Below the pieces are notes generated by a model, which searched no databases, was not told the DNA's origin, and saw only the letters and a program-made list of their open reading frames with translations. A stretch of DNA of 64,000 nucleotides from Candidatus Bathyarchaeum tardum. Lineage in GTDB: Archaea; Thermoproteota; Bathyarchaeia; Bathyarchaeales; Bathyarchaeaceae. Location: NCBI GenBank assembly GCA_024650005.2, contig CP122380.1, positions 576,001 through 640,000 on the forward strand. The letters are read 5' to 3'. A program made the translations under genes and the position numbers. Every line of letters begins with the position of its first letter. Positions within the stretch are counted from its first letter, which is position 1. Shown piece after piece: positions 44,036 through 63,828 of the stretch.

Positions 44036-44333
44036 GAATCACACCAATAAAACCTCCAATATACTGAGGATAAGGATTTTTGTCAAGAAACATTGACCAA
44101 AATCAAGCTTCAGATAGTCAAGAAACTTTGACTATTTATTGTTCAACCTATTAAAATTTCAAATCACCTATGTTTTAGATTCACACCCAAACTTGAACAT
44201 TTGTCTTTATGGATTCTCACCATAATAGAGACATCTCCCATAAGATCACTTTTTTATTGTTCAGAGCCCAAAAGCTAATTTAACCAATCACCAGGTGACG
44301 GTTCAAAATCCCCTTTTTTTTGGTGATTAGGTT

Positions 44334-44546: not shown

Positions 44547-44679
44547 AAGAAGCAGCAAGCATCTGCACAGGTAGCTTATTTCCCCCTGATAGGCGCAGTT
44601 TGGCATGTTTGTTGCTTCCATCACACATCAGGGGCCATTCAGAAAGATTGGCAATTAGCATCTAGCTGAGGTTTGTTTT

Positions 44680-45672: not shown

Positions 45673-45881
45673 CCAGTCATTGTCACAAAAATTCATTTAA
45701 TTCTGTGCAAGGCTCAAAATGGGCTTCTTTTTGGTCTATTTTTTGGACTTCTTTTTGTAAAATAAGCTTATTTTATGCCTGTTTTTCAAGGGGGTTTTTG
45801 GTTGGTTAAATGGTCTAAGTTGGCGGTTTCAACTTTGTCTGTTCGTGATGTTGCATGTTTACCATTAACTGAGGTTTTGCT

Positions 45882-46355: not shown

Positions 46356-46822
46356 GAGAACCTAACAATGTAAACAATAATGTAGTAACTTTCAAAAGTT
46401 GTTTTGTAATTAGCCTAAATTCAAACATAAAAATTTGTTCATTATTTTGTTTAATGAAGATGGTCTCTGGAGCCCCTGACTGGAGTTCGACTATTTCCCG
46501 GGCTACTACTAATTCTAAAGTAAGCGACTTTTGTGTGTAGACTTTTAAAATTGTTTATCGAGTGTTTTAAGTGATTTTCAAACGCTTTTGAAAGATTGAA
46601 CACTAATTCTTTCGATTTTTAAACTAAACTATCATCCATGTACAAAACAAGATTTCTTTTGTTTGACATTTGTATTCACATCCGGTTGGGTACAAATGGG
46701 TGTTTTTCTTTGTTTATTTTTGGTGATAATAAATACCGTTGATTACTTTCATATGGAGAAGCATTATCTCTAGCATATTCTAAGTTACTGTTAGCCAGTT
46801 TAATTATTCCAAGGACCGACAA

Positions 46823-47356
46823 ATGTTCCCAAAATATAAAATTGTAAATGTTGTTACAACAGCAACGCTTGATCAAGAAATTGATTTTGAAGCAATCAGG
46901 AAATTGGATAATGTGTTTCACGATTCAGATGTTTATGGGGGTAGAGCAGCATATTTCAAAACAAATGAAATGCAGGGAAAAGTCTCAATTTTTTCTTCCG
47001 GAAAAATGATCAGCGTTGGAACAAAGACTCGGGAAGAATCATTTAGGGAACTTGAAGAAGCCAAGGATTTTTTAGTGAAAAGTGGGTTTATTACCGAAGT
47101 TTCTATTGAACCAAAAATTAGGAATTTGGTGATTAGTGTTGATTTTGGGAAAACAATTAATCTTGAAGATTTAGTGTATGTTTATCAAATAATATATGAA
47201 CCTGAACAATTTCCGGGTGGAATTTTACGACTTTCTGAACCTTTTAAAGCATCGGTATTAATTTTTTCTACGGGAAAAGTGATAATTACAGGTCTAAAAG
47301 CTATGAACCAAATTGAAAAAACGATAGCACACTTGAAAAAATGCTTAATTACTTAA
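46823..47356 (+). CDS. tbp: Divergent TATA-box binding protein paralog
   Basis: Two TBP repeats: IVNVV..., IFSSGKM..VG; IRNLV..., YEPEQFPG, LIFSTGKVIITG. Confidence 0.88.
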   Translation: MFPKYKIVNVVTTATLDQEIDFEAIRKLDNVFHDSDVYGGRAAYFKTNEMQGKVSIFSSGKMISVGTKTREESFRELEEAKDFLVKSGFITEVSIEPKIRNLVISVDFGKTINLEDLVYVYQIIYEPEQFPGGILRLSEPFKASVLIFSTGKVIITGLKAMNQIEKTIAHLKKCLIT

Positions 47357-47473
47357 ATAATAAACTTTTTCAGTAATTAATTTTTGTTCAAAAATGTATT
47401 TTTGATTATTATTTTACAATTATAATGCTATATGTTTTCTCTCTTGAAATCTCGAATCTATAGAACGTTAGTA

Positions 47474-47902
47474 TTATCGCTTCATAAGTATCTGATAGTC
47501 ATTATTTCTTAAATAATAACCAGCAGGGGTCATTCTTTTTTTTGATTTAATTGGAGTCTGGTATTTTTGAATGTTTGCTAAATGATACACTGAAAGATTT
47601 TGAGTTTTTCTTTCACGTCCTATTGGAGATTTTTTTGCATAATTAAAAAGTTCTTCTTGTGTTAAAAAAAGATTTTGGCCGTAGTTTTCATAAACTTCTT
47701 CTACAGTCATCCTTTCAATCTTCAGTATTTTTGCTTCTCCAATTATGGTTTTTTCTCCAGAAAGATAAAAAATCGCCCTCATTCCTTTGTTAAGCTTAAC
47801 CAATTTATTATCATATTTTACAAATATTTTTTTTCCTTTTATGAAAATTGATTCAGCATGTTTCAGTTTTATTGGGAAGACAAACCCGCTGATTTCGGAC
47901 AT
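47474..47902 (-). CDS. PUA/ASCH-like (DUF365-type) domain protein
   Basis: FPIK..HAESIF..GKKIFVK, IFYLSG..IIGEAKI, LFLTQEELFNY. Confidence 0.7.
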   Translation of the reverse strand: MSEISGFVFPIKLKHAESIFIKGKKIFVKYDNKLVKLNKGMRAIFYLSGEKTIIGEAKILKIERMTVEEVYENYGQNLFLTQEELFNYAKKSPIGRERKTQNLSVYHLANIQKYQTPIKSKKRMTPAGYYLRNNDYQILMKR

Positions 47903-47962
47903 TTAAACAACTGCTCCTTTCCTAATACATTTCATATTTTCTATTTATAAAGAATGTATAAC

Positions 47963-50900
47963 CTATAAATCAAAATAGTCATCTACAAGTTTTATTTCTT
48001 TTTTATTCAAACCATATATGTCAAAGATGAAGGCGTCAATTTTTTTATCAATTGATTTTATTCTTTCTTTTATTCTATTTATTTCATTGCATTCTGCTTC
48101 AGTTTTTCTGCTTAATTCTTTATTCAAATTCATTATTTGATCAACGTTTTTTGTTATTGCATCTACCTTCAATTTTGAAGCAGTCATTATGGGCAATGTC
48201 AGAAAATCGTTTGGATAGAATTGAATGTATTTCCCCCTTACATGGATAGAAGCAAATAATACTTGATAATAAAAGTTAATCAATTTTGAATTTAGAATCG
48301 CCATTAAATACTTAAGATCAATGTCGGATCCTCTTGGCAGTATTATTTTGATTGAATTATTGGTATAATATTGTTCATCATCATATGCAACTTCTGGACG
48401 TAGACCAAATAGAGCAGTTACAAGTTTTTCTTTGGCCTTGAATATTCGAGGATCTCTTAGAGAACCATATTCTCCTTTATCTTTATCGAAAATACTTGGA
48501 TCATAATTGACCCATAGTTTGTCCCATTTTATTGAGTACCTATCAATGCATTTTGCTGTGATTAATTTTTTACAATTCTTATTTTCCTTTTTGTTTAAAA
48601 TCATTTTATCTCTAATGTTTCCCGTATGAATTCCGTCTTTCATTTCACATAAACTAGTTAAAGGGATGGATTTTTGTTTAATCCGTTTTAGAAGATGCAT
48701 AACTCCTGGAATTAAATCAATTGAAAAAATATTCTTAGGTGAATCAGCGAAGGCAGATTGATTTATTTCATACACGTCACTAGTGTCTCTAATTTTTCCC
48801 TCTTTGATTTCTTTTTTAATTTTAATGATGTTGTTTTCTCTAACTTTTTTATTTGGTTCTTTTTGAAAGATGAAAATGTAGGGGTATGTTGCAGCATCTT
48901 TAAACACGTTCATATGTGAAACGTCTAGAATGGTGTTTATGATGCAATTTTGAAGGATCACTTTTCTAATACCCAAACCATATTTTGAAGCTGTAAACTT
49001 GTTGGAAATAATAAACCCTAATGAATTATGGTATTTAGCAAGTGATAATGACCTTTCAATAAAGAGAACGCCTAGATCAAAACGTTTGAAAGCACCTTTA
49101 AATAAACTCTTAAAAACATTCCATTCTATTTCAGGAATGTCTCTGGATTCTAAATAAGGAGGGTTACCAATAATTATATCAAAGCCTCCTTCATCGATAA
49201 TGTGGCCAAAATCAATTTTCCAATGAAATGGATTTGTACCTATATATTCTTTGAATTTTATTGGGATATCAGTTAATTTCTTTTTATCAAAATTTGAATC
49301 AATTTTTCTGTTGATATGTTCCAAAAATATAGGATTAACACTGGAATATATTGAAATTTTTATTTTTTCTAAAATTCCTTTGAGGTTTACAGCTTCCAAT
49401 CCATGTGTCATGCGATAGATCTTATAGAGGATCGAATATGCTTCGATATATGATTTCAATTGGAAAGTTGAAAGCAGATCACGAGCTTTCTGTAAATCTT
49501 TTCTTATATCGTTCTTACAAAATGTTATTAACCCTGCAAATAATGCATCAACTTCGTTTGTCAAAGGTCTCTGTAACGGGATTTGTTTTAATTCTTCATT
49601 AATCCAGCCTATGAGACTGTTTCCAATACGAATGTTATATTCAATATTTGGCAATGCATGCATTTCTGAACCTTCTTTGTATTCTGCCACCAACCAGAGC
49701 CAAAGTCTTAATTTTGTAATCTCACCAGCGCCATCAAGAATATCGACTCCATAAATGTTGTTTACTATTGTGTTAAGTTTAATACGATAGTAATCTGCTC
49801 CATTTCCCAATTTATTTAATAATCTAACTTTAACTTGAAATAAAACCTCAGAAGCTTTTATTAAGAAAGCTCCAGACCCACATGCAGGATCTAAGATCTT
49901 CATTCGGTCAAGGGCATCAAGAGCTTTTTTTATGTCGTTACTGTTTGCATTTTCTACTAATTCATTTACATCATTATACTTTGAATTAAATAGATCTAAT
50001 ATAAAGGGGTAAATTGTATTTTCTACAATATATTCAGTTATTTCCTCTGGAGTATAATAAACTCCCTTCTTTTTTCGTTCACTAGCTTCATTAATTGCTT
50101 TTTCTGCCTCTTTTTTAAAGCCACTTCTTTCCCATTCAACAACGCTTCTTTCATATACATGACCGAGTATTTCTGGAGTAAGAACATTTTCTTTATCTTC
50201 GATGGCTGTTTCAATGTCTTCTTCAATTATCCAGTGATATTGGTTCAAGAAATCAAAAACGTCTCCCCAATCCTTTTCGCTTAATAAAAATCTCAGATTC
50301 CCCTCTAAATGATCGGGCCTGAATAAACCTCCATTCAGATAAGGAATTTTGATCAAAAAATCATTTATCTGTAAAAATCTATTTTGAGCATCATTAAACA
50401 AGTAAAAGAGATTTTTAACATTTTCAAAGAAATTATCTGTATCTAATAAAATTCTAAATAAATTTTCTCCACTAATGCTTTTTCCGGTGTTTAGCGTAAT
50501 TATACCTTTATGGCAAAGAAAATATGTGAAAAAAATTCTATCAAATAATTTTTGACTTATAAGATATTTTTCAACTGGTTTGAAATCATTCTTTATACTT
50601 CTTGCAACAATATTTCTCTTTGATTTAAATTTTTCATAGAACCAGCCTGAAACATCCTTACGATGAAAAATATAATCGAATTTTGTATCAATTTTTTTTA
50701 ATTTATCTAACTTTGAAATGTTATCCTTTGTTCGGTCTGAATATAGAAAATATCTCCCCTCTCCAAAATTTCTGAAAAAAATAATTTTTGTATCATGTAC
50801 AATTGCACAATAAGCTAATCCTCTTTCAATGAGAAAATGATTTTTTACATCTTTTGTTTTTTCAATCTCTTTTACTTCGTAAATAACCAATAGTTTTCTT

Positions 50901-51028
50901 TCGTTAATCTTAAAGAAAATACCTTCATTAAATTCAGAATCTTGAAAATTCTCTATTTCTTCATAACCTTTCACCTTAAGAAAGTCACTAAGGGCTAATT
51001 TTCCTTGAAGTATCTCCTGTGGTTCCAA
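47963..51028 (-). CDS. Large N6-adenine DNA methyltransferase (Eco57I/TaqI-C type)
   Basis: YLNGGLF, GVYYTP, DPACGSGAF, GNPPY, YLMAILNSKL TaqI-like C-terminal domain. Confidence 0.92.
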   Translation of the reverse strand: MEPQEILQGKLALSDFLKVKGYEEIENFQDSEFNEGIFFKINERKLLVIYEVKEIEKTKDVKNHFLIERGLAYCAIVHDTKIIFFRNFGEGRYFLYSDRTKDNISKLDKLKKIDTKFDYIFHRKDVSGWFYEKFKSKRNIVARSIKNDFKPVEKYLISQKLFDRIFFTYFLCHKGIITLNTGKSISGENLFRILLDTDNFFENVKNLFYLFNDAQNRFLQINDFLIKIPYLNGGLFRPDHLEGNLRFLLSEKDWGDVFDFLNQYHWIIEEDIETAIEDKENVLTPEILGHVYERSVVEWERSGFKKEAEKAINEASERKKKGVYYTPEEITEYIVENTIYPFILDLFNSKYNDVNELVENANSNDIKKALDALDRMKILDPACGSGAFLIKASEVLFQVKVRLLNKLGNGADYYRIKLNTIVNNIYGVDILDGAGEITKLRLWLWLVAEYKEGSEMHALPNIEYNIRIGNSLIGWINEELKQIPLQRPLTNEVDALFAGLITFCKNDIRKDLQKARDLLSTFQLKSYIEAYSILYKIYRMTHGLEAVNLKGILEKIKISIYSSVNPIFLEHINRKIDSNFDKKKLTDIPIKFKEYIGTNPFHWKIDFGHIIDEGGFDIIIGNPPYLESRDIPEIEWNVFKSLFKGAFKRFDLGVLFIERSLSLAKYHNSLGFIISNKFTASKYGLGIRKVILQNCIINTILDVSHMNVFKDAATYPYIFIFQKEPNKKVRENNIIKIKKEIKEGKIRDTSDVYEINQSAFADSPKNIFSIDLIPGVMHLLKRIKQKSIPLTSLCEMKDGIHTGNIRDKMILNKKENKNCKKLITAKCIDRYSIKWDKLWVNYDPSIFDKDKGEYGSLRDPRIFKAKEKLVTALFGLRPEVAYDDEQYYTNNSIKIILPRGSDIDLKYLMAILNSKLINFYYQVLFASIHVRGKYIQFYPNDFLTLPIMTASKLKVDAITKNVDQIMNLNKELSRKTEAECNEINRIKERIKSIDKKIDAFIFDIYGLNKKEIKLVDDYFDL

Positions 51029-51031
51029 AAT

Positions 51032-54000
51032 CTATTCCTCCAAAAGTGCTATTGCAAACTTGCGAGTTGTTTCATTAATTAACTTCTCTTGAACATGCTT
51101 TTGGGTAAAGCTATTCTTTATTTTATTATTCAATTCTTTAATTAGTTTATCTGAGATTTCATCTTTTTTGATTCTTTTTTCCAACTCTTTGATGACTCGA
51201 GCTGTTGTACTGCCACAAGATTCTTTTGTTCTGTTCAATGTAAAAATTAATTCGTCAATATTCGAGTATAACTGAGACAGGTTTTTTAATTCGATTATAT
51301 CCAAAATATTATTGATTTTTCTATCTAATTGGCTATTATAAAAATTTAGACATAATTTTTTTCTTTTTTCAGTCTCTAGGTATTGATCGAATTCTTGGAG
51401 ATAATTGTTCAGATCTTTTTCAAAATTGATTGTTCGAGTAATTTTTTCCATTTTGGCCTTGTGTAAGTATTCCTCATTAAAAACATCATTAGAGTTGTAA
51501 TAAACAATTAGACCTTTTTTTCCTTTGATTGTCGTATAGTTGTTACCGAATGGCAAATTTTGGTTTTCAACATCTTCTCGAGTAATTCCAAATTTTTTGA
51601 TCGTTTTTTGTAGGAAAGCTAAAGTAGGTTTTGCATATTGTATTTCAACTTCAAGATTTTCAAATTTTCCTTTCGTAAAATCTGAACGAATACTCTTCAT
51701 TACCTCTTGGTATATTCGTGTATCTTTCAATCTTCTTTCTTTTAGAAGCGTTCTGATCTCATTTTCTCGATCAATCCAAACCCGATATTCTACGCCAACA
51801 AAATTGATTATGTCTTTAATTCGAAGGTCCATTCGATCTACTAATTCCAATTCTCTATCAATGTCTTCATCAGGTTTGAAATTGAATACATCAATTTTTT
51901 TTGGATTATCAAGTCGTGTTGCACGTCCAATTCTCTGAATGATTCTAACTGGATTATATGGGATATCAAAATTTATTACAACATCGGCACCACTAATGTT
52001 AAAGCCTTCTGACAATGCATCTGTCGAGCACAGTAGACTAAGTTTTGATCGCTTGTCATTGAATTTCTCGATTATCCTATTTTTATTTTCCACTTCAGAG
52101 CTAACATACTTTGCAACATCGTTGCTGATTCTACTTTTTAGGAATTTTTCAATAGCTTTTAGTGTGTCTTTGTATTGTGTAAATAACAAAATTTTCTTTG
52201 ATTGATTATTCTTGACTATCTTATAGAGTTCATCAAGTTTGTAATCATTCTCAAAACAAAGGTCGGATACCACAAACGGTTGTAGCTTTTCAATTTCATT
52301 ATTGATACGTTCAGTGTCACTTTTTAAATCATCTAAAATTTTTAACTGTTCTTGACCTTTTCCCTTCTTTATTTTTTCGATTACTTTCTCTAATTTTTCT
52401 CGAAAATCAAAAGTGAAATTTATTTCGACATCATCTTCATATTCTATATCTAAACAACAAACATCTCTGTTTTCAATAGCGTCTTGTATGCATTGATTTC
52501 TCTTAGCTAACCTTTTTAATGTTAGATAGTAAGCTGTTATGCTACTCTCAAAACGTTTGTACAATAACCACTTGAAAAAACCACCTAATCTTCTACCTTT
52601 CTCAGGATCAATCATCCTAAGGTGGGCAGCAGAAAGACTGCTTATGAAATCGACAATGTTATTTACGATTGGTCTGTAATTTGCATGTAAGGTATATTCT
52701 GTTTCAATCACTTCTGGATCGGGTATTGTTGTTAAATCAACACCAGAAAACTCTTTCAATTGTTGAATATAATCTTGATTAGTCTTAATCGTTTCTCGAG
52801 TAGATTTGATAAAAAGCTCCTTTTCGACTTCTTCTTGTCTTTTAGCTAACTCTTCTTTTTCATTGTTGGTTAATTCTTCAAACTCTTTTTTCATTGCTAA
52901 GTCGATTACTTTTTTCAAATCCCTTACCATTGCATCAAAAACCAAATTTTGTCCAGGCCTATGGAAAAGCTCAATTAAACTCAACAAATCATTTAAACTT
53001 GTATTAATTGGAGTTGCCGTCAAAAACATAATCTTTGAATCGCCATTTAGATCAATTAACCTCTTCAAATTCCTTGTTCTATAAGCATCATTATTTCTAA
53101 AATTGTGGGCTTCATCAACAATAATTAAACCATACTTGTTTTCCTTTTCAAGTTTTATCTTACCACTAGTAGCATAGTTTGTCACTCTTTTATCAAAAAA
53201 CTCCTTAGGGTCTTTTTGGAACTCCCCCATAGAAACTAAATCTACTTTACCCCAAAGCTTAAACTCTTTCAAGTATCGAGGCCACTGATCATCACCTTTA
53301 GCAAGATTTGCAGGTGCAATGATTAACACTCTATTTCCTTCACGCATAAAAATCTCTGCAACTTTAGTGGCAACATAAGATTTTCCAAGACCCACAGAAG
53401 AAGTCAAAAACACGCTTCGATATTTGTTCTCTTTAAACAATCTCAAACATCTATTTGTGTCAACAACTTGAAATCCAAACAAACCTGACTTTTTCCAATC
53501 CTCAAAAAGATAATCAGCGTTCAAAAACTTGATTAACGATTTAAAGAATTCCTTTGGTTCCATGTATTTGTATGCTTCATCAATTTCTGCTCCAAACTTT
53601 GATTCTTCAATTGCTTTTGTTAAGGCATCAGCAACTCTAAGTTTTTCAAACTCTTCAGTTCCATGTTCCCACAACTCATCAAACCATGATTCAAGATAAC
53701 TCATGCTTCGTTGATTTGTAGTCATCATATTCAGTTCTGTATTCCCCATTAACCCACTCGGAGTTAAGTTTGATGACCCAATCACACAAGCATAGTAACG
53801 GTCCATTGGGTTATCGGTTTCAACATCTCTAAGAAATAAGTAACCTTTTGAATGTAGCCTTTGTAGTTTCCCATTTTCTCCAAGGTATACTCTTGCTTTC
53901 AGAACTTTTGATTCTTTGATTAAAGTATGGAAAAGTTTAACGGCAGCGGTAGTTGTTTCATTTTTTTCAATTTCATCAAATTTTTTTGTGAAGGCTCTAA

Positions 54001-54256
54001 TGAGCTCTTTTTTTGTTTTTGGTGAAGTGTCTCCTCCCATTAGGATTTTAATTTCTTTTAGTTGTTTGAGTGAGTTTATTATTTGAGCTAGCCCTTCAAT
54101 GTAAAAATATCCAACTGCTGTTTTCAGTCCTTTTGAGCCTTCAGCCATATTGATAAGCACGTCTTTTAAAGTCACTTTTTTTCCTGAGTGGACTCGTCTG
54201 TTGTCAATTATTGAGCCTTTATCCATTAGCTCTTTAAAGCTGAAGTCTTCGGACAT
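51032..54256 (-). CDS. PLD-family nuclease fused to SF2 (SNF2-like) helicase
   Basis: LHSKGY and IGSSNLT..G...N.ELN PLD motifs; VGLGKS, DEAHN, LTATP, SEGFN, QRIGR. Confidence 0.9.
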   Translation of the reverse strand: MSEDFSFKELMDKGSIIDNRRVHSGKKVTLKDVLINMAEGSKGLKTAVGYFYIEGLAQIINSLKQLKEIKILMGGDTSPKTKKELIRAFTKKFDEIEKNETTTAAVKLFHTLIKESKVLKARVYLGENGKLQRLHSKGYLFLRDVETDNPMDRYYACVIGSSNLTPSGLMGNTELNMMTTNQRSMSYLESWFDELWEHGTEEFEKLRVADALTKAIEESKFGAEIDEAYKYMEPKEFFKSLIKFLNADYLFEDWKKSGLFGFQVVDTNRCLRLFKENKYRSVFLTSSVGLGKSYVATKVAEIFMREGNRVLIIAPANLAKGDDQWPRYLKEFKLWGKVDLVSMGEFQKDPKEFFDKRVTNYATSGKIKLEKENKYGLIIVDEAHNFRNNDAYRTRNLKRLIDLNGDSKIMFLTATPINTSLNDLLSLIELFHRPGQNLVFDAMVRDLKKVIDLAMKKEFEELTNNEKEELAKRQEEVEKELFIKSTRETIKTNQDYIQQLKEFSGVDLTTIPDPEVIETEYTLHANYRPIVNNIVDFISSLSAAHLRMIDPEKGRRLGGFFKWLLYKRFESSITAYYLTLKRLAKRNQCIQDAIENRDVCCLDIEYEDDVEINFTFDFREKLEKVIEKIKKGKGQEQLKILDDLKSDTERINNEIEKLQPFVVSDLCFENDYKLDELYKIVKNNQSKKILLFTQYKDTLKAIEKFLKSRISNDVAKYVSSEVENKNRIIEKFNDKRSKLSLLCSTDALSEGFNISGADVVINFDIPYNPVRIIQRIGRATRLDNPKKIDVFNFKPDEDIDRELELVDRMDLRIKDIINFVGVEYRVWIDRENEIRTLLKERRLKDTRIYQEVMKSIRSDFTKGKFENLEVEIQYAKPTLAFLQKTIKKFGITREDVENQNLPFGNNYTTIKGKKGLIVYYNSNDVFNEEYLHKAKMEKITRTINFEKDLNNYLQEFDQYLETEKRKKLCLNFYNSQLDRKINNILDIIELKNLSQLYSNIDELIFTLNRTKESCGSTTARVIKELEKRIKKDEISDKLIKELNNKIKNSFTQKHVQEKLINETTRKFAIALLEE

Positions 54257-54421
54257 AGCTCACATTTATGTTTGATCATAAAATAAATCATTCGATGATA
54301 AAATTATGCTAGAGTACATCTAAAGAATAATTTCTAAACAAAAAATTCTATTTTCTAAAATCCTAATAAAATTTAGAAAAGGACTGTTGAACTTTTTTGG
54401 TATTCAGGGTGTCCTCAAAAG

Positions 54422-55627
54422 TTATCCTCGTGTGTTTTGGTTTTTATTTTCTAGCGGCAGCCCCATTGTGATTAGTATTTTTCTGAATTCTGGAGTAGGT
54501 ATCACGTCGGAACGGTCTTTTGCGATTTGTGCGAGGACGGGTAGCAGGGTTTCTATGTCTGGTTTTTCGGGTATTCCCCAGTTCATTCGACTGTCTGCTT
54601 TTACAGGATCCAACCCTGCTTGTGTTAGGACGGGTACAAAAATTTCTTTTTCTACAGTTCGTTTGATGAATCTTTGTAGGGCTAATACTTTTCTTTCTGC
54701 AATTTCAAGAGCTGCTCGTGCTGATGCTTCGGTGAATCCTGGTGTTGTGAATAGTTTAGGTAAGGGTGTTTGTCCGCCTAGGTAAACTTGGTTTAGTATG
54801 TGATCTATGTATGCTTCGTATCTTGCTCGGGGGTCAACTGATACTGTTTTGATGTCTGCTTCAGGCTTGTTATAAACGAATCTTGCGCCAGCTTTAGGTT
54901 TGTTTTTGATCATTTTTTGGTATTCTGCAAGTTTTTTGTCGCTTGCTCCTGCGAAAACCCATAGTTCATCAGGCCCTGCGTACTTCTCGAAAACTTCAGG
55001 CATCATTTTTTCTATTCGTGCTTTCATTTCTAGAAAGCTGATTCTTGTTTCTCCGCCTTCTAGTTTGAGTTCAGATAACAGGACTTGTAAAACTCCAGTT
55101 CCGAAGGCTGAGAAGTTTACTGGATTCCATCGGAAATGAATTATTTTTTCGGGTTTAAACTTCTTTTTCACTTCGCCATATGAGTAGTTGTATCCCGTAA
55201 CTTCTCCAAAGAAATCACGTTCAACCGCTTTGGATTCGTCAAAACCTGTTAGGGGTAGGACTTTTAGTATTTGCAGGTTTTCAGGGGTTGTTTTTAGCCA
55301 GAAACTGTTGCCTGCAGCCACTATTTCTCTTGCTCCGATTTGGAGTAAACTATCAAGGTTCACAGTTTCGCAGAATTTGTCGATTGCTTGTTTTGCTTCT
55401 GTTGCTTTTTCGTATTGTTCGTTTACTGTGGTGTAAAATCCCATTCCTACTGCTTGGTCTGCTAGGAAATCTACAAAGGCTTTGCAGCTGGGGTCTCTTG
55501 TGTATGCGGTTAATATGTTGTTGAATGTTACTGGTTTTGGTTCGCCGTATATTGTTCTGTGAGCTGGTAATAATGAGTTTGAGTTTCTGGATACGCCTTC
55601 ACGTATGCGCTGAATAAGTCCACTCAA
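54422..55627 (-). CDS. Viral portal protein
   Basis: Y..DP....VD.LA..AVG.GF, GNSFW, FKPEKIIHFR.....FG motifs; 401 aa. Confidence 0.85.
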   Translation of the reverse strand: MSGLIQRIREGVSRNSNSLLPAHRTIYGEPKPVTFNNILTAYTRDPSCKAFVDFLADQAVGMGFYTTVNEQYEKATEAKQAIDKFCETVNLDSLLQIGAREIVAAGNSFWLKTTPENLQILKVLPLTGFDESKAVERDFFGEVTGYNYSYGEVKKKFKPEKIIHFRWNPVNFSAFGTGVLQVLLSELKLEGGETRISFLEMKARIEKMMPEVFEKYAGPDELWVFAGASDKKLAEYQKMIKNKPKAGARFVYNKPEADIKTVSVDPRARYEAYIDHILNQVYLGGQTPLPKLFTTPGFTEASARAALEIAERKVLALQRFIKRTVEKEIFVPVLTQAGLDPVKADSRMNWGIPEKPDIETLLPVLAQIAKDRSDVIPTPEFRKILITMGLPLENKNQNTRG

Positions 55628-55854
55628 AAGGTAGCCCTCATTGCTGTTTCATTTATGGGTTTGCTTTCTATTTGTGTGAGGTTTTCAACCCATTCTATGT
55701 CTTTTTTTGCTGATTCAATTTTCTTTTCTGCGTTTTTGCGGGAACGGTTTACTGTTGGGGGATCTCTGTTGAGTGCTCGTGCAATTGCATAGTCTGAGTT
55801 GCCTTTTGCTCGTAATTTTAGAATTTTTCGTTCAAAGTCTGTCAATAAGCCCAT
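55624..55854 (-). CDS. Small HTH protein (Tfx/sigma70-region-4-like)
   Basis: LTDFERKILKLRAKG.S...IARAL.....V.R....A.KKI; 4 bp overlap with the portal start. Confidence 0.75.
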   Translation of the reverse strand: MGLLTDFERKILKLRAKGNSDYAIARALNRDPPTVNRSRKNAEKKIESAKKDIEWVENLTQIESKPINETAMRATF

Positions 55855-55966
55855 TTTCTACAACAGGGTATGATATGAGCTTATTTTTCTTAAATAAGCT
55901 ATTATCACGTTTAGGATAATAACAGCTTTTTGTTTTAACGCTTATTTTTGTTTTGGATTTGATTTC

Positions 55967-57253
55967 ATGCCCCGTCATGAAGATTTTGAAAAAATTTATC
56001 AAAGTTTTATTGAGCAATATGGACCTGAAGAGGGTGAAACGAAATATTTTGCTTGGCTAAACGAACGCAGCTATGACGACTCAAAGCCTATGCCTAAAAA
56101 AGAAAGCTTCTCGTGGGTTGGTGATATTCAAGCAAATCCAGCTGAGAAGAACTTGATTCGGGGTAAAGCTCTTCATCCTGTAAAGACTTTGCATCCTGAT
56201 GAGTGGCCGCAAGTTCGAGTTTATCTTGATGAAGAACTGGAAAAGTCTGCTGATACTCTAACAGGCGGAATTCTGCTTTTGGACCATGGTGTTGTTGTAG
56301 ATGGAAAGGTTTTGCAATCTGCCTATGAGGATGGCGCCATTGAATATGTTGCGCAAGTGGACGATCCACGGATTCTTGACTACATTGAAACTGGAGACAT
56401 CAAGCATTGCAGTGTTGAGTTTAATTGGAAGTCTCTTGAAAACGTCGAGGGTGGTGTCGCACCAAAGGGAATCGAATTTACCGGTCTTTCTCTGTTGAAA
56501 AATTTGGCTCCTGGAGATCCTATGACGACTGTTGAGGTTTGGGAAGGAATCATTCAAACTCTGAAAGAAGCTAAACTGAAAGAGAACAACAAACCAGAGA
56601 CTCCAACTTTAGAGGGCAGGATTACTTTTCTTGAAACTTCTCTGTCTTTGAAGGAACAACAGTTAACGAAGGAACAAATTACTGCGAAAATTGACGAGCT
56701 CAATCAGTCTAAACAGGTTTTAGATACTGAGTTGCAGCAGATTGCGGATAAAGAGCAGCCGAAACGTAATGAGATTTGGCAAAAGATTGACTTGCTTAAT
56801 GCAGAGCTCAGGGCTTATGAAGAGGCTTTGAGAACCTTATTGGCTAGTGAAATTGTTTCTCCTTCGGGAGATTCGACTGAAGAAAAGCCTACTGGTGAAG
56901 GGTTGCCGAATAGTCAAGAGTCCCAGGAACCTAAAACGCCTAAAGAACGGTTCATGAATCATTTTAGCATTAGTGAAGAATCGTTCCAGAAATTCTTTGA
57001 CCTTCTAGGAGAGGAAATGTTCAAGTTACTGCCTGAACCGGGAACCAAACGTCAAGAACAAACAGCAGAATCAAAGAAGGTCATAGGGGAAGCAATCATT
57101 TCTCCGAGTCCAGGACAAGAAGAGCCTTCTGACTTGATTAATAAGAAAGAAATTTTGTCTTTAATCCCCGGTATTCAAGTCACTAGATCATGGAGTTGGG
57201 GTCCTCAAAGGCTCGTGAATGAAATAATGCACAAGTTAGGGGAGGTGCAATAG
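55967..57253 (+). CDS. Prohead protease / scaffolding protein
   Basis: LLLDH, HCSVEF, FTGLSL..PGDP protease motifs, then coiled-coil and acidic scaffold; first gene of the head operon. Confidence 0.75.
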   Translation: MPRHEDFEKIYQSFIEQYGPEEGETKYFAWLNERSYDDSKPMPKKESFSWVGDIQANPAEKNLIRGKALHPVKTLHPDEWPQVRVYLDEELEKSADTLTGGILLLDHGVVVDGKVLQSAYEDGAIEYVAQVDDPRILDYIETGDIKHCSVEFNWKSLENVEGGVAPKGIEFTGLSLLKNLAPGDPMTTVEVWEGIIQTLKEAKLKENNKPETPTLEGRITFLETSLSLKEQQLTKEQITAKIDELNQSKQVLDTELQQIADKEQPKRNEIWQKIDLLNAELRAYEEALRTLLASEIVSPSGDSTEEKPTGEGLPNSQESQEPKTPKERFMNHFSISEESFQKFFDLLGEEMFKLLPEPGTKRQEQTAESKKVIGEAIISPSPGQEEPSDLINKKEILSLIPGIQVTRSWSWGPQRLVNEIMHKLGEVQ

Positions 57254-57256
57254 CCT

Positions 57257-57487
57257 ATGGAAAAATCTAAGATTCGAAGTATTTTGGTTCCTTTCTGTCC
57301 GCCTTTGTCTCCAGTTCAAGTTAACGAGATTGTTTCTGCGATTGATGCTGTAGTAAATGCGACTATTGCTGAAATAACTGCAAAGATTCAAGCTGAAGCC
57401 GAAGAACCAAAAGAAGAACCTGAACCGCCTGAGATTCCTAAAGCTGATTCTAAATCAGAAAAGAAGCCTACTCAGAAAAAATCATAG
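57257..57487 (+). CDS. Small hypothetical viral protein
   Basis: 76 aa ORF tightly packed in the head operon; GGAGGTG SD. Confidence 0.6.
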   Translation: MEKSKIRSILVPFCPPLSPVQVNEIVSAIDAVVNATIAEITAKIQAEAEEPKEEPEPPEIPKADSKSEKKPTQKKS

Positions 57488-57554
57488 TCACTTTTGACCG
57501 GGAGTAAGGAGGACGAACTCTCTGAAACCGAATGTAAAAAATGGAGAGATGTAG

Positions 57555-57974
57555 ATGACTGATCTTTGGCCTGATGCAGAATTAGGCGAAATGATATCCG
57601 ACGGGGAAGTCCTCAGTTTTGAAGCTGAAGCCCCAATAACCAAAGGGTCACCTGTTTACATTACAGCAGACATGAAAGTTTCGCCCAGTCCAGGAGGAGA
57701 TAATGCAATTGGTGTTGCATTGAATTCACCTGTTGCTGGAGAGGAATGTTCGGTCTGCAAACGCGGAGTAGTAAAAGTAACTGCCAGTGGTGCTATTGCT
57801 AGGGGCTCTGCTGTTTGTTCAGCTGCTGGAGGAAAAGTGGCTCAACTTGTTGATCAAGCAGTAGACGAAGGCGGAAGTGCAACATACACAATCTATTACA
57901 ATCGCAAACTAGGCTCAGCACTGCAAGCACCAACAACTGACGAAGACGAGTTTCTCATCCACGTGGAGAAGTGA
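57555..57974 (+). CDS. Capsid decoration/cement protein (DUF2190-like)
   Basis: FEAEAPITKG.PV, AIGVAL, GVVKVTASGAIARG; directly upstream of the MCP. Confidence 0.75.
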   Translation: MTDLWPDAELGEMISDGEVLSFEAEAPITKGSPVYITADMKVSPSPGGDNAIGVALNSPVAGEECSVCKRGVVKVTASGAIARGSAVCSAAGGKVAQLVDQAVDEGGSATYTIYYNRKLGSALQAPTTDEDEFLIHVEK

Positions 57975-58918
57975 TCGATGTGCCAATAGAGTATCCAATT
58001 CCTAAACTTTTCGAAGCCATCCAGAAAGACAATGACATTAAACAAGACCTTCCGGGTATTTTTGAACGTTCAAAAAGTAACCCCATGATTAATGCTGTAA
58101 TGCGAGAAGCAATTCTTAGTGACGTTTCCGGTGCCCTTGGAAAACTACATGACAGTGTTGTTGAAGCCGCTAAACCTGCCTTGATTGGAAGAGAACTGAT
58201 TTGGGTGATGCCCACAAGCGAGAGTATGGTCAGGTTCCCTAAAGCCAAGGTAGGTAAAGCCAAGAGAACTGCTGAACTTGCCCAAACATGGATTTATGGG
58301 GAAAAATACTCGACTATTGACGTGAAAACTAACATTGAAATCAGAGCTGGTGCTGAATATTCAAAGAAGTTCTTTGAAGATGCCACTTGGCCTGTTATGG
58401 AACGTCAAGCTGCTGAAGTTGGGCGTTCAATTGCAGAACTTGAGACTGAACGGATTCTAGCCCTTTATGAAAGTATTCCTGCTTCTGATCTTGCAGGAGG
58501 CGCAGTACTAAATGGTAGCGGCACCCTTGATTGGGCGGGTGTAGTTAGTTTCTGGAATCAGCTAAAAAAGGAAAACCTCAGTGCAAAAGTGCTAGCGATT
58601 AATCCTAACCAAGCTGCTGATCTTTGGCAAGACGAGAAATTTATTCATAGTTTCTATTTTGGAGACAAAGTGGATGTTGCTCGTGGTATCCTAGGTCAGA
58701 GTTACTTGGGAATGAAAGTTGCTGTTAGTACCAAGGTAGCTGATGGAACAGTTTTTGCGATTGATACTGACGTAGCAGGAGTCATGCCGTTGCGCAGAGA
58801 CGTAATGACTGAGCCCTTCGAGAATCCTCGTGATGACCGTTACGGTATTGTTGGTAGTGAACGTTTAGGTCTTGGAGTCCTTAAAACCGAGGCAGTAGCA
58901 AGAGGAACCGGATGGTAA
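57971..58918 (+). CDS. HK97-fold major capsid protein
   Basis: 315 aa; E-loop (AE.A), YSKKFFEDA.W...ERQ, INP, LGMKV.VS, ERLG.GVL..EAV pattern. Confidence 0.85.
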   Translation: MIDVPIEYPIPKLFEAIQKDNDIKQDLPGIFERSKSNPMINAVMREAILSDVSGALGKLHDSVVEAAKPALIGRELIWVMPTSESMVRFPKAKVGKAKRTAELAQTWIYGEKYSTIDVKTNIEIRAGAEYSKKFFEDATWPVMERQAAEVGRSIAELETERILALYESIPASDLAGGAVLNGSGTLDWAGVVSFWNQLKKENLSAKVLAINPNQAADLWQDEKFIHSFYFGDKVDVARGILGQSYLGMKVAVSTKVADGTVFAIDTDVAGVMPLRRDVMTEPFENPRDDRYGIVGSERLGLGVLKTEAVARGTGW

Positions 58919-58983: not shown

Positions 58984-59235
58984 ATGGTTGCCAAAATAGG
59001 ATTTGTACAAGGCAAGTGTGGCGCTTGTGGGAAGACTCTTTGTAGACATCGTCCTGCAGATTTAGCGGTTTGTGATTGTTACGAATATTGCCCTGTTTGT
59101 GGAACTAAAATGATTCCTTATTGGCCTGATTTAGCCCCTGGACAGTATAGGGCAGGTGACATTGACGTTTTGTATCAATGCCCAAATTGTGGTCATAAGA
59201 GTAGACAAAAACCAGTGGAAGTCAAATTGTCATGA
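58984..59235 (+). CDS. Zn-finger protein
   Basis: CGAC, CDC, CPVC, CPNC. Confidence 0.7.
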   Translation: MVAKIGFVQGKCGACGKTLCRHRPADLAVCDCYEYCPVCGTKMIPYWPDLAPGQYRAGDIDVLYQCPNCGHKSRQKPVEVKLS

Positions 59236-59474
59236 AAGATCGAGAGCGTGAAATTCTCCGCAAAATTATCTTGGAATTCCTTACTAAAAAACGCGTACAT
59301 TATTCAGAATTAGAAAAGAAAGTGTGTGCTACATTTCACTCATTTGCTACAACCAGCACTTTCAGATCGCAGTATCAGTATTTACTCACTAACAATTACA
59401 TTGAGCGAATAGCCCGAGGAATTTATCAAATAAGCCCCAAAGGCAAGAAACTCCTAGAGCTATTAACAGCCTAA
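59232..59474 (+). CDS. Small wHTH protein
   Basis: YSELEK...YLL...YIER..RGIYQISPKG. Confidence 0.7.
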   Translation: MKDREREILRKIILEFLTKKRVHYSELEKKVCATFHSFATTSTFRSQYQYLLTNNYIERIARGIYQISPKGKKLLELLTA

Positions 59475-59507: not shown

Positions 59508-60641
59508 TTAGAGATCACTGATAGAATTTGCTTTGATGAATTTTTCCAAAGTAGTGTATTTATGTCCTAAAGGTGCAACTTTTTTATTTATCAAAGGAAT
59601 CGGATCTTCAAGCTTATACAATGAATTAGGTTTAAGATGAATCACCTGTTTTCCGGCCTTGAATGTGTCAAGGTCTTCTTTTGATATTTTTTTAATATCC
59701 TCTTTTGATTTTAAAGGTTGAGTTATTGTTTCGATTTCTGCAAAGTACATAACTGATGATTTAGGTCTCCCAATGTATAGCGCGAAATATTTCGGGGCTC
59801 TGTTTTTTCCGAGTTTAATGAAACCCCATGCATTATATTTTTCAAGGAATTCGATTCCTTCAACTCGACTGGTACATAGGAGTACAACAGCAGATTCTTT
59901 GTTTGATAGCATGTTCCTAGAAATTGTACTTACTTTTGACACCTGTCCAACTTGTTCTTTCTCAAAACTTACTGGCGCGTCAGCCTGATCCTCAAACAAT
60001 TTAACTGTTTGTTTGCCAAGTTGGGCGGAAACAATCCTAATTCTATTTTCTAATCCGGGTCCAGTAAATTCAATTAATACTTTCTGAAATTCTTCTGCTA
60101 GTTCATTTTGTTTGCGTTTCAAATTACTGATGACTTTCTTAGTAGTAACAAATCGATTTGCAGTTTTTTCGATCTCACCTGTTAATATCGATTCTCTAGA
60201 AAGAATTCTTAACTCATTTTCTCCTGAAGGTAGTTCCTGAAGGTTAATTTCTATTACAAGGCATTCTGTTTCATTCTTTCCTGCTTTTGTGTCAAACACT
60301 TTTATTCTCTTCCCATTTGTAAGAACAACCCATTTAACGTCCTCGACTTTTCCGTAACTAATAATTTGAGAACAGAAATCATCGATTAGACTTTCATCAA
60401 AAGCTTTAGCTTCAACAAAAACTACAGGTTTATCTTCTAACATTAATGCATAATCTACGTAAGCTGTTCGTGTCCCTATTCTGACAGGATATTCTAATCT
60501 AATTTCATTGCTACGCAAATCCCATCCGAGAGATTCTAATAGAGGCTCAATAACCCGTTTCTTAGTGTTTGCTTCACTTCCGGTTAAATCAGTTTTTGAA
60601 AAATCAGTGATATAATGCAATAAATTCTGAAAGGAAGTCAT
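59508..60641 (-). CDS. HsdR-N-like PD-(D/E)xK nuclease with C-terminal PUA-like domain (defence cargo)
   Basis: EANTK..VIEPLLESLGW, VDYAL, VEAK, QI.SY, VLTNG; antisense to the morphogenesis operon. Confidence 0.8.
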   Translation of the reverse strand: MTSFQNLLHYITDFSKTDLTGSEANTKKRVIEPLLESLGWDLRSNEIRLEYPVRIGTRTAYVDYALMLEDKPVVFVEAKAFDESLIDDFCSQIISYGKVEDVKWVVLTNGKRIKVFDTKAGKNETECLVIEINLQELPSGENELRILSRESILTGEIEKTANRFVTTKKVISNLKRKQNELAEEFQKVLIEFTGPGLENRIRIVSAQLGKQTVKLFEDQADAPVSFEKEQVGQVSKVSTISRNMLSNKESAVVLLCTSRVEGIEFLEKYNAWGFIKLGKNRAPKYFALYIGRPKSSVMYFAEIETITQPLKSKEDIKKISKEDLDTFKAGKQVIHLKPNSLYKLEDPIPLINKKVAPLGHKYTTLEKFIKANSISDL

Positions 60642-61075: not shown

Positions 61076-61438
61076 TTGGCTTCTGTGACTGCTGACCGTG
61101 TAAGAGATCGGGTTAACTTGTCTGCTTCGGATATTCCTGATGCTAAGGTTTTAGAGTTTATTGCAGATGCTGAAGTCGAGGTAGAACTAGAAACTGACTT
61201 GGAAATTGATTACTCAAACTGTACTCCTGGACAAGCAGCTTGCATTACGGACCTTGCAGCACTTTATTGTCTTGCTTACATCACTGGGGGTTCGGCTTCT
61301 GGTACTAGTTTTAGTATTGGAGATTTGAGTGTCAAAGAAGTTTCTGGAGGTAATGAAGGACATTCTCCTGCTTTCTTGCATCAACGTGTTTTGAAACTGC
61401 TTGACAAATTGAAGGGCAGTTCTTTGAAGGTGTCCTAA
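61076..61438 (+). CDS. Head-tail connector/adaptor protein
   Basis: 120 aa helical protein (VT.D.VR..., FI.DA..EV, SFSIGDLSV) positioned after the MCP. Confidence 0.65.
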   Translation: MASVTADRVRDRVNLSASDIPDAKVLEFIADAEVEVELETDLEIDYSNCTPGQAACITDLAALYCLAYITGGSASGTSFSIGDLSVKEVSGGNEGHSPAFLHQRVLKLLDKLKGSSLKVS

Positions 61439-62848
61439 ATGACTGTGCTTCAAGATTATGCTGATTTCATCCTTGAGTATGCACCTTATTTTTACTATAC
61501 TCCTGGCATTGGCGTGGATCCTGTGTGGGGAAAAGGACCAGCTGCTGCAGGTCATTCGATTGATTTTTTGGTTTTGTGTCATGCTGATTCACAGTTTGCT
61601 AGTATGCAGTCGACCATTTACGACAAGATTGTAGAGTTAGCGGATTTTCTTGTTTCGATTCAATGTACTAACAACACAAAGAAGGCCTACGGGGGTTTTC
61701 AAAGCAAAGAGGGAAGCGACTATTACTATTCGATTGATGCTCACCGTTCAATTCCTGCTCTTTTGAAGGCCTACGATTTGACGGGAAACGTGGATTACTA
61801 CAACGCTGCAGTGCTGGCTGGAGATTATCTTTACACTATGCAGCATCCGCCAATTCCAACTGTTCATGACCAGTACTATGGAGGTTTTGCTCAGTTCGTT
61901 AACATCGACGACCAATGGGGCGCGAATATGTGGGTTGTTGATCTGTACGGAATAATGGGTTTGAAAGAAATCTACACCCGGACAGGTGACGCCAAATATC
62001 AAACAATTTTGGATGAAGCTTTAGCCTTTTATCGTCAAGGAATAATCGACTTGTGGCTTTATTATACACCTCTTCCTAGTGGAAATGGGGCGTGGCATCG
62101 AGCTCCCGGAACACCGCCTGAAAATCTGATTTTTGATGACGATTTCAGTTATGCCCTTCATAGTTTGTACCAGTATGAGGGCTGGAGTGAAACAGTTGAA
62201 AAGGTGTTTCGACACTGCAGTGAGATTGAACCAACGATAGATCACCCTGCTTATCAGCCTGCAGTTGGTTGGCCGGGTTACTTGGATGTAATTAACCGAA
62301 AGCCCGATTGTGATTACTACGATGCTGTGACGTCGGGAATCTTGGCTTTAGTGTTACGCAAAAACCATGATGGCATCATGTATGAGTATGCCAAGAAAAT
62401 CATTGAACGGCATCCAGATTCTTTCATGTATTGGGGTCCACAATTTTCGGATTATTCACCTGTGGAAGACAAGAAAGCTACTGTAACGGTTTCTTGGCTG
62501 GGGATGTATCTTGTTGAGTATTCACCTATTTCAAACAAGTTCACGCAGATTCTTAATGCTCATGGGGAAACTGTAACTTTCTATTCGGTGATTTCTGGAG
62601 AAACCGAGTCCTTTGCTGAAGGTATCGAAATTAAGGCGATTGTTAGGCCTACAGAGTCAAAAGAAATTTTCTTGGAAGCAGGTTACACAGTAGACGATTA
62701 CAAGACTTTCTATGTTTTTTCTCCTGTTAGGCATCATGACAAGTTGGTCCACAAATCAATTCCTTACACTGCTATTGGGGTTCAGGATTTCAATTTTCAA
62801 AAGGACACATTGTATTTGAAAGTGCTGTGCAGGAGGTTGCTCGAGTAA
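61439..62848 (+). CDS. (alpha/alpha)-barrel glycosidase-like domain fused to head-closure-like domain
   Basis: YGGF and ALLKAYDLTGN..Y..AA..AGDYL helical repeats; C-terminal ~105 aa beta domain (GETVTF, IKAIV, DKL, YLKV.CRR). Confidence 0.6.
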   Translation: MTVLQDYADFILEYAPYFYYTPGIGVDPVWGKGPAAAGHSIDFLVLCHADSQFASMQSTIYDKIVELADFLVSIQCTNNTKKAYGGFQSKEGSDYYYSIDAHRSIPALLKAYDLTGNVDYYNAAVLAGDYLYTMQHPPIPTVHDQYYGGFAQFVNIDDQWGANMWVVDLYGIMGLKEIYTRTGDAKYQTILDEALAFYRQGIIDLWLYYTPLPSGNGAWHRAPGTPPENLIFDDDFSYALHSLYQYEGWSETVEKVFRHCSEIEPTIDHPAYQPAVGWPGYLDVINRKPDCDYYDAVTSGILALVLRKNHDGIMYEYAKKIIERHPDSFMYWGPQFSDYSPVEDKKATVTVSWLGMYLVEYSPISNKFTQILNAHGETVTFYSVISGETESFAEGIEIKAIVRPTESKEIFLEAGYTVDDYKTFYVFSPVRHHDKLVHKSIPYTAIGVQDFNFQKDTLYLKVLCRRLLE

Positions 62849-63828
62849 TGGCAACTGTAGAGGATTCCGTGTTAACGGTTATTCGTCTCCTGGACAATAA
62901 CATGAAGCTTGCAAAAGCAGACGGCAATATTGGTTCTGTTTACGTGAGTGAAGAATGGTACAACCGAACGGTTATGAAAAATCATGATGCTCAGGTGACA
63001 GTTGGCCTTGCAAACAGCACACATCGAAAGCTTGGCTTTTCTGCTACTTTACGTTTGGATGTGGGTTTGCTTCGTGTGATTTTGTGGGTTATCAACAAAT
63101 CAGGTTCTGAAGAATCGCCTAGGGCTATTCGGGATAAGATGCGAAAGGAAATAAAGCGGATTATTGCCGAGAAACGAACTAAGCCCAACATTACGGAATA
63201 TTCGTTCTGGAACCTTGGTACTACTAGCAAAACTCACAAAGCCTATGAAGTAGCTGCTGATGCTGAATTAGCCCCAGATAATGAGAACTGGGATGAAATT
63301 GAAGGCGAAGGCTATAACAAAATTTGGGTTAGTGACGACGATAGACACTCCATTTCTGCAGATGAGAATTTGGATTATGGCCTGATCCTTTTTAGGTTCA
63401 AAGTAGGTGCTGAATCAAACGTCCTTACAAATCTGGAGTTTGCCTTTGAGGGTTACGGAACTGCTCCTGGGGGAAATGGCGCCACTATCAAAGTTTGGAA
63501 TTTCAGTTCTTCTTCTTGGGAAAATGCTCAATCAGGAACTGCTGGCACTGATGAAACGCTTACAATTGCGTTGTCTTCTGGCTTTTCGGATTTGATTGAT
63601 TCTAACGGTTACGTGTATTTGCTTGCTCGAACAACGAATCCGAGCAATGGCTCTACTGATGCGGTGCTTCATTGTGATTTTGTGAAATGCGCTGCCACAG
63701 TTCAGGGCATTCATTACGTTGATGTTGTTTCTTTTGGGGATTCGGACGACGTTGAAGTAAATCCCGTTATTTGGAGGACAGATTTTGTTCTCAAAACTTG
63801 GTTGTTTGAAAATATTCCTGTTACTTGA
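62848..63828 (+). CDS. Tail completion-like protein with inserted beta-sandwich domain
   Basis: TAATG coupling at 62846-62850; directly before the tail tube gene; insert with FEGYG...IKVWN....W, YVYLLA. Confidence 0.55.
   Translation: MATVEDSVLTVIRLLDNNMKLAKADGNIGSVYVSEEWYNRTVMKNHDAQVTVGLANSTHRKLGFSATLRLDVGLLRVILWVINKSGSEESPRAIRDKMRKEIKRIIAEKRTKPNITEYSFWNLGTTSKTHKAYEVAADAELAPDNENWDEIEGEGYNKIWVSDDDRHSISADENLDYGLILFRFKVGAESNVLTNLEFAFEGYGTAPGGNGATIKVWNFSSSSWENAQSGTAGTDETLTIALSSGFSDLIDSNGYVYLLARTTNPSNGSTDAVLHCDFVKCAATVQGIHYVDVVSFGDSDDVEVNPVIWRTDFVLKTWLFENIPVT

Follow-up and report, generated by a model that had tools for sequence, protein, structure and literature searches.

Tailed viruses and proviruses of Bathyarchaeia are described, in the available parts of two reports, from metagenomes and host genomes only (Duan et al. 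2024, PMC10848311; the '38 head-tailed proviruses' paper, PMC11705971). As presented in those parts, the viruses have an HK97-type capsid, a portal, a large terminase subunit (TerL), a tail tube and, in some cases, an integrase, and several bring along defence cargo such as restriction-modification genes, parts of DISARM or pAgo (PMC10848311, PMC11705971). Here we analyse a locus from the same host class, also with defence cargo, in a 64,000-nucleotide stretch of the Candidatus Bathyarchaeum tardum genome (contig CP122380.1, positions 576,001-640,000; hereafter the window), which is a single contig of 2.15 Mb. What the window contains is very probably the set of head genes at the core of a complete temperate tailed virus (Caudoviricetes) of about 34.2 kb, which has an integrase and is integrated just upstream of valS in a Bathyarchaeia-type host; its portal gene is transcribed away from the capsid genes and its TerL lies far downstream.

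Each of these two peculiarities has a counterpart among known phages. In phage P2 (Peduoviridae, with units Q-P and O-N-M-L) the portal is likewise transcribed away from the scaffold and capsid operon, and the first rightward gene codes for a scaffold. The protein concerned, gpO, also carries a protease domain. The region shared by the P2 units spans 174 bp, with one activator site for both promoters in the annotated record, as against 112 bp here. P2 differs, however, in that TerL (P) goes leftward with the portal (Q) and the small terminase gene (M) follows the capsid gene (N), whereas in our element TerL stands at the end of the rightward unit; moreover, none of the element proteins scanned matches a P2-family Pfam or PHROG profile, and we regard the likeness as one of layout and not of membership in Peduoviridae. 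Terminase genes that follow the capsid, tail and fibre genes are found in phage T7 (Autographiviridae), where genes 18 and 19 close the late region, far from gene 8, but T7 is a lytic, short-tailed phage encoded on a single strand, has no integrase and shows no sequence relationship to the element. Because P2 has a divergent portal and T7 a late terminase, the gene order is unusual but precedented.

Archaeal viruses and gene transfer agents offer further comparisons. Among 50,697 phage records, the best match to the portal is that of the Nitrososphaera provirus Pro-Nvie1 (FR725450; 23.7% identity, E 2e-9), which is also an integrated archaeal tailed virus but one whose TerL, portal, protease/capsid and tail genes are co-oriented and arranged in the canonical way. 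In the available part of the description of 'Fuxivirus', portal and TerL are adjacent (genes 28 and 27), whereas here they are 14.6 kb apart with the portal on the other strand. The Rhodobacter capsulatus gene transfer agent (RcGTA) has a similar portal fold, but our element differs from that agent by its integrase, attachment (att) sites, cargo and patchy distribution. What sets the lineage apart is that two traits occur together: the divergent portal is not accompanied by TerL, and TerL stands at the distal end.

Virion genes on two diverging units

We scanned 22 open reading frames (ORFs) at 42006-63828 against Pfam and PHROGs, as well as 22 further ORFs from the next 36 kb past the window, for which coordinates are given as window-equivalent. 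The features on which the argument turns are as follows.

54422-55627, minus strand: portal protein, 401 aa (family profile, AlphaFold model, Foldseek)
55624-55854, minus strand: helix-turn-helix (HTH) regulator (HTH_38 / LuxR-GerE / Tfx-like), 76 aa, first gene of the leftward unit
55855-55966: divergent gap, 112 bp, with an imperfect palindrome and two copies of GCTTATTTTT
55967-57253, plus strand: putative capsid maturation protease with a scaffold-like tail, 428 aa (invariant His/Ser, model likeness)
57257-57487, plus strand: ORF of 76 aa, no Pfam, PHROG or NCBIfam match
57555-57974, plus strand: cement/decoration or scaffold protein, 139 aa (PF09956 1.7e-9; phrog_673 'head scaffolding protein' 4e-17)
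57971-58918, plus strand: major capsid protein, 315 aa (PHROG and profile against solved capsids)
63847-64677, plus strand: tail tube, 276 aa, crossing the window end (PF18906 1.9e-16; phrog_290 2.8e-19)
65770-66138: gp10-like tail completion protein (PF04883 5e-5; phrog_5 1e-16)
70198-71652: TerL (PF03237 3.5e-11; phrog_2 5.6e-36, residues 43-470)
77234-78394: tyrosine integrase (PF00589 2.8e-22; phrog_216 8e-24; XerA-like 2.9e-23)

On the minus strand, the two ORFs of 401 and 76 aa overlap by 4 bases; on the plus strand, ORFs of 428, 76, 139 and 315 aa span 55967-58918, and the 112-bp gap separates the leftward HTH-portal pair from the rightward, predicted capsid operon. An earlier interpretation made from the letters of the window alone (the sequence-only reading) had described a portal and an HTH gene facing away from protease and capsid genes across 112 bp, with structural ORFs that look intact; the ORF coordinates agree, and every one of the structural ORFs listed is open. 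Its gene identities stood for the portal, the HTH protein and the major capsid protein, while that of the 428-aa protein as a protease is only moderately supported. It had also reported that terminase and integrase are absent from the window, and indeed neither family was matched by any of the 22 ORFs at 42006-63828 (Pfam, PHROGs); its caveat that the missing genes might lie beyond position 64000 proved correct for both. TerL starts 6.2 kb past the window end and 14.6 kb from the portal start, as the second-to-last gene of the rightward unit. Solved chains match both of its halves—the T4 gp17 ATPase at residues 50-205 and a TerL nuclease at residues 305-467—and TerL therefore carries both an ATPase and a nuclease domain.

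Taken by itself, the window protein is only marginal as a portal in Pfam (PF04860, E=0.0031, under the cut-off) and PHROGs (phrog_9232, E=2e-4) and matches none of Portal_Mu, Phage_portal and SPP1_portal at E<=0.001. A profile of 6 homologues, however, reached 691 cluster representatives at E<=0.001, and among the 90 sequences of an alignment that joined 89 near-full-length representatives with the window protein, 21 matched Portal_Mu, 17 Phage_portal and 2 SPP1_portal. The AlphaFold model (pLDDT 91.1, pTM 0.86) gave 129 PDB matches at E<=0.001 in Foldseek, and among the matches listed all are portals or neck/connector structures, with the RcGTA neck 6toa (7e-10), the HFTV1 portal 8qsy, lambda 8xot and G20c 6ibg (TM 0.61) as the best rows. 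Profile searches of the PDB were less productive: the 6-sequence alignment returned nothing meaningful, and the portal rows obtained with the 90-sequence alignment were all sub-threshold (E 0.07-0.1). Judged by its modelled fold and by its family, the identity of the 401-aa minus-strand protein as a portal, a hallmark of Caudoviricetes, is confirmed.

For the capsid, the 315-aa protein matches four PHROG major-head families (best 8.6e-8), and a 7-sequence profile finds the solved structures 6wkk (1.5e-14), 9jwb (5.6e-6) and 9eg4 (9e-4). These matches point to an HK97-fold major capsid protein, as expected of Caudoviricetes, and the family matches of the tube and of the gp10-like completion protein indicate that tail genes are present as well. 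The 428-aa protein is more difficult to place. It has no Pfam, PHROG or NCBIfam match, none of its 161 homologues has a protease family on record, and a profile search of the PDB with a 7-sequence alignment returned nothing meaningful; His107 and Ser149 are nevertheless invariant across 41 sequences. The model of residues 1-230 (pLDDT 72), when compared with all representative chains using VIA-align, found the T4 gp21 protease first (Z 8.3, root-mean-square deviation 3.4 over 119 residues) and the varicella-zoster virus protease second (Z 6.8), where best Z scores of 7-8 are common among unrelated models. Foldseek gave no match at E<=0.001, with herpesvirus and T4 proteases making up much of its weak list. 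A capsid maturation protease of the assemblin/HK97 type is a candidate assignment, and we consider a protease-scaffold fusion probable on the strength of the model and the invariant residues.

The 76-aa HTH protein matches PF13936 (9e-8), PF00196 (6e-6) and, below the cut-off of that family, TIGR00721 tfx (3e-6). In the gap upstream of it, 16-nt palindrome arms at 55871-55886 and 55892-55907 are 88% complementary, and GCTTATTTTT occurs in two copies that are the only ones in the window, a count that by itself is not significant (about 0.8 expected per window; 19 of 100 shuffles reach two). TATA boxes of archaeal leaderless transcripts lie about 25-35 bp from the start codon, and AT-rich stretches at about that distance from each of the two start codons are candidates for such boxes. 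The gap may hold two promoters together with an operator for the HTH protein, and the two units may be operons. The element would then consist of two divergent morphogenesis units that use a common 112-bp control region: a short leftward unit, in which the HTH regulator is followed by the portal and which would run into a swappable defence cassette, and a long rightward unit of protease-scaffold, cement, capsid, tube and tail genes, TerL and an ABC ATPase, with the integrase at the right end.

Borders, empty site and DNA forms

The element is bounded by an exact direct repeat, and the host gene valS follows closely on the right.

44270-44282: attL, 13-bp core AAAAGCTAATTTA, exact direct repeat
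78425-78437 (window-equivalent): attR, second copy of AAAAGCTAATTTA, 48 bp upstream of host valS
78485-80938: host valS, 48 bp 3' of attR

With one copy of the core, the element extends over 44283-78437, or about 34.16 kb, and the AT-rich cassette at 46.4-54.4 kb lies inside it. Recognition of the 13-mer required comparison with G016, the genome whose valyl-tRNA synthetase (ValRS) is the closest (92% identical) among five genomes searched and which has no capsid gene. There, 44208-44282 and 78422-80000 align one after the other to a single continuous stretch; their alignments overlap by 16 bases, an overlap that in the present genome contains the 13-bp repeat, and AAAAGCTAATTTA is present in G016 as a single copy in the uninterrupted site. 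Exact repeats of at least 14 nt between the flanks occur at chance level only, and no tRNA that could serve as an integration target lies near either border, the two tRNAs found being at 2782-3042. In three other genomes (G003, G020, G024) the left-flank genes are absent despite the common ValRS, and the site is not definable from them. TBP and eRF1 genes nearby (Pfam) show that the host is an archaeon, and portal homologues in public records are labelled Bathyarchaeota or Bathyarchaeia.

Both forms of the site were recovered in sequencing runs, which were examined as contigs. In run X1, a possible source of the assembly, a 26.8-kb contig without any difference covers the stretch from the host flank at 43176 via attL to 61000. 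Run X2 belongs to the same study; in it, an 802-letter contig agrees at every position with 43785-44282 and goes on directly into 30 letters identical to the stretch right of attR, while an 8.5-kb contig identical to 46114-54622 indicates that the element is also in this run. Contig depths, which are not copy numbers, were 212.8 for the host flank and 198.5 for the element in X1, and about 3850-4040 and 72.8, respectively, in X2. Integrated and empty-site forms thus coexist as DNA, where the empty-site contig of X2 could reflect either excision or the presence of a near-identical strain that the virus never entered. Given the exact 13-bp repeats, the empty site of G016 and the flank junction of X2, we regard the element as a recently mobile 34.2-kb provirus; an integrase, end repeats and an uninterrupted target elsewhere are what is expected of an integrated temperate provirus.

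The region directly left of attL also varies. G016 lacks about 23 kb there (window 21113-44207), and its stretches matching 21015-21112 and 44208-44282 are about 130 bp apart. This block is partly AT-rich (GC 0.30-0.36 at 22-34 kb), carries transporters, a P-type ATPase, glycogen-related genes and MarC, and has a provirus relic at its end; one possibility is that an older island occupies the same site.

Gene order among relatives and nature of the element

The capsid gene was found in 14 of the 41 genomes searched, the one analysed here included; it occurs in 9 of the 24 remaining genomes of the genus and, within the order but in other families, in 4 of 16, and two genomes have more than one match. 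Homologous loci were compared, as the sequence-only reading had proposed: six loci were examined, and portal and capsid are on opposite strands in all five in which both were seen (G011, G018, G001, G013 and G026), the contig of G038 being too short to score the layout. TerL follows the tail genes and is itself followed by the ABC ATPase in four of the six. In G013, the portal, protease, cement and capsid genes are present, the ATPase is split, and the 36 kb examined contain no tail genes and no TerL; extra genes stand between portal and protease in G018, G001 and G013. Among IMG/VR loci found via the portal, 18 of 23 have the divergent layout. The others are L039 and L040, in which the capsid gene comes first and the portal follows it in the same orientation, and L046, L048 and L049, in which the portal is followed by tail genes on the same strand and no capsid match occurs in the available stretch. 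A portal tree of 26 rows, which excludes the partial portals of L043-L045, requires at least two changes of orientation. The divergent layout is typical of the lineage and not peculiar to this copy, and the lineage shows plastic head-gene order in archaeal tailed viruses. In the contig L028 (9.7 kb), two small ORFs, TerL and the ATPase come immediately after the head genes; this locus and that of G013 may be deletion derivatives or capsid-only elements.

These results bear on what the element is. The sequence-only reading had inferred something other than an ordinary provirus, be it an unusual virus lineage, a satellite or a domesticated particle resembling a gene transfer agent (GTA). TerL and the integrase just downstream are the finding that it had itself named as its refutation; with the att repeats and a known empty site in addition, that inference is at most partly supported: the apparently terminase-free capsid cluster was an effect of the window edge, a false lead that is now removed, and what remains is a well-delimited, apparently intact Bathyarchaeia tailed provirus. 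The idea of an unusual lineage holds only weakly, in that the order is conserved within the lineage and differs from that of Pro-Nvie1, while each of its oddities has a precedent in P2 or T7. A satellite that uses the packaging or tail parts of a helper virus would agree with the lack of a terminase within the window and with the shorter relatives, G013 without tail genes or TerL and L028 with head genes followed by TerL; it is nonetheless highly improbable, and we reject it, as the element itself encodes TerL, portal, capsid, tube, tail-completion and tail proteins, instead of lacking virion or packaging genes and depending on a helper, and no second complete related virus that could act as one is present in the genome. 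The probability of a domesticated GTA-like particle kept by the host is smaller still and close to nil. The best Foldseek row of the portal is the RcGTA neck, but this is tied with portals of true viruses, and the unrecognised replicase is set against an integrase with att sites, a target site that is empty in the closest relative and in X2, near-identical flanks with and without the element, a capsid gene in only 9 of 24 congeners and in more than one copy in two genomes, integrases that differ among relatives (36% identity in G011), cargo that is exchanged among them, and decayed relics. A fixed, vertically inherited locus without integrase or att sites, as a GTA would be, is not what is observed, and this explanation too is rejected.

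A different possibility is that the provirus is defective (cryptic), having integrated recently and kept its ORFs and att sites, with neither replication nor infectious particles. Genes for replication, lysis, tape measure and small terminase were not recognised, several decayed relatives in the genome suggest that decay is usual here, and among the related loci three have other genes between portal and protease and one of these lacks tail genes and TerL in 36 kb. We consider this unlikely, given that at least 12 conserved structural and packaging ORFs are full length relative to those of relatives, that the att repeats are exact and presence or absence varies on flanks with 0 differences, and that unnamed genes are normal in archaeal viruses. 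The virus, on our preferred interpretation of an intact temperate provirus, would still form particles. Several points weigh against this interpretation: replication, small terminase, tape measure, sheath and lysis genes were not recognised with Pfam, PHROGs or NCBIfam; two opposite-strand ORFs break the tail block; the protease assignment depends on a medium-confidence model and a borderline Z score; the empty-site contig of X2 could stem from a near-identical sister strain and not from excision, and depths of contigs do not measure copies; and no virion, transcript or attP junction was seen.

Tentatively, and with rather more doubt than confidence, the observations can be combined into a single picture, in which a live temperate virus entered or left the chromosome between the sister samples X1 and X2, in which the portal of this lineage was separated from the packaging genes and placed with the HTH gene under a control of its own, in which exchangeable defence cassettes, here a TBP paralogue with a restriction-modification/helicase pair, dock at the 3' end of this HTH-portal unit, and in which the orientation of the portal flipped at least twice in the group. 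A live virus, if such it is, could provide a workable virus-host pair for a cultivated Bathyarchaeia lineage. Induction experiments are straightforward to design, since the att sites are exact, an empty site is known and both DNA forms occur in sister samples.

Cargo, further genes and relics

The remaining features of the element are listed from left to right.

44280-46355: left arm, with ORFs of 114 aa (44280-44624, minus), 330 aa (44680-45672, plus) and 157 aa (45882-46355, plus)
46356-54421: cargo cassette of TBP paralogue, DUF365, methyltransferase, PLD and SNF2 helicase (Pfam, PADLOC)
46823-47356, plus strand: TBP paralogue, within the att borders (Pfam)
47474-47902, minus strand: DUF365
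47963-51028, minus strand: type IIG-like methyltransferase
51032-54256, minus strand: PLD and SNF2 helicase
58984-59474, plus strand: zinc-ribbon protein (83 aa) and Mrr_N-like protein (80 aa), kept in relatives (Pfam)
59508-60641, minus strand: HSDR_N-type endonuclease, 377 aa (PF13588 2.7e-13; phrog_4225 endonuclease 4e-17)
61076-63828, plus strand: virion-module ORFs of 120, 469 and 333 aa, kept in relatives, the 469-aa protein without a Pfam match
64679-65128: ORF of 149 aa, past the window
65410-65733, minus strand: ORF of 107 aa, past the window
66135-66752: ORF of 205 aa, past the window
66815-69232: tail protein, 805 aa, past the window
69217-70226: small ORFs of 125, 80 and 137 aa, upstream of TerL
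71649-73070: ABC-type ATPase (Pfam, PHROG, solved structures)
73496-77244: six unassigned small ORFs

The 8.1-kb cassette, bordered by the 3' end of the 157-aa ORF on one side and by that of the portal gene on the other, has a GC content of 0.29-0.33, against 0.38-0.43 in the head genes, and its place is occupied differently elsewhere. G011, which has a homologue of the 157-aa ORF (71% identity) in the equivalent relative position, carries SIR2-like, N6_N4 methylase and PLD genes in this slot instead, and in run X3, from a different study, a contig joins 46349 to 54462 via 4041 other letters. In the IMG/VR set, 13 of 23 loci lie on contigs that stop no more than 2.5 kb from the portal 3' end, which fits breaks of assembly or trimming at a variable region, a physical genome end being possible too. 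For defence cargo, the convergent gap at the portal 3' end is a hot spot. There is a second variable slot, flanked by the Mrr_N-like gene and the 120-aa ORF, which here holds the gene of the 377-aa endonuclease and in G011 and G018 other genes. Run X2 additionally contains contigs 90-99% alike to 44333-46349 and 54462-58212 of the element, with a summed depth roughly 10-50 times that of the exact-match cassette contig; these look like a related virus variant without this cassette.

Among the other proteins, the 330-aa protein of the left arm is a winged-HTH protein with weak HTH matches only (Pfam). The 469-aa protein (61439-62848), in the middle of the predicted virion operon, resembles clusters of alpha/alpha-toroid GH88/GH127-type proteins in the ESM Atlas (TM 0.59-0.64), and may be a virion-borne, glycan-degrading enzyme, for which the Atlas match is a lead only; we had also considered a tail sheath for this protein and rejected it, as the Atlas indicates glycoside hydrolase-like clusters with an alpha/alpha-toroid. 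Wherever TerL was seen in a relative, the soluble ABC-type ATPase comes after it, and this ATPase is more conserved than TerL, with 54-74% versus 43-50% identity within the genus and 46% versus 37% in G026. Its best solved matches are ABC-F type proteins and ATPase subunits of transporters.

Pieces of similar elements are scattered across the genome: one half of TerL together with an ABC ATPase near 930 kb, pieces of capsid, Zn-ribbon and Mrr_N genes near 1,329 kb, and, near 1,897 kb, part of a portal gene beside another copy of the gene for the 137-aa protein. Just left of attL, a frameshifted copy at 43131-43510 is 80% identical to the stretch upstream of and into TerL (69936-70324), further copies of which lie near genome positions 1,548,000 and 1,896,700. 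This is a pattern of repeated infection and decay, not of domestication. We considered a CRISPR array at 43.0-44.1 kb and rejected it, as the depth spikes there arise from dispersed repeats and the provirus relic. Finally, a 36-nt hairpin with stems TGTTGTTGTTG / CAACAACAACA and a G-rich loop occurs at 43145-43180 and again within the 137-aa ORF (about 69950-69990). It is found at about 17 genomic places with 90-100% identity, eight of them at 811-840 kb and one beside the capsid relic, and our guess is that it might be a packaging or regulatory site.

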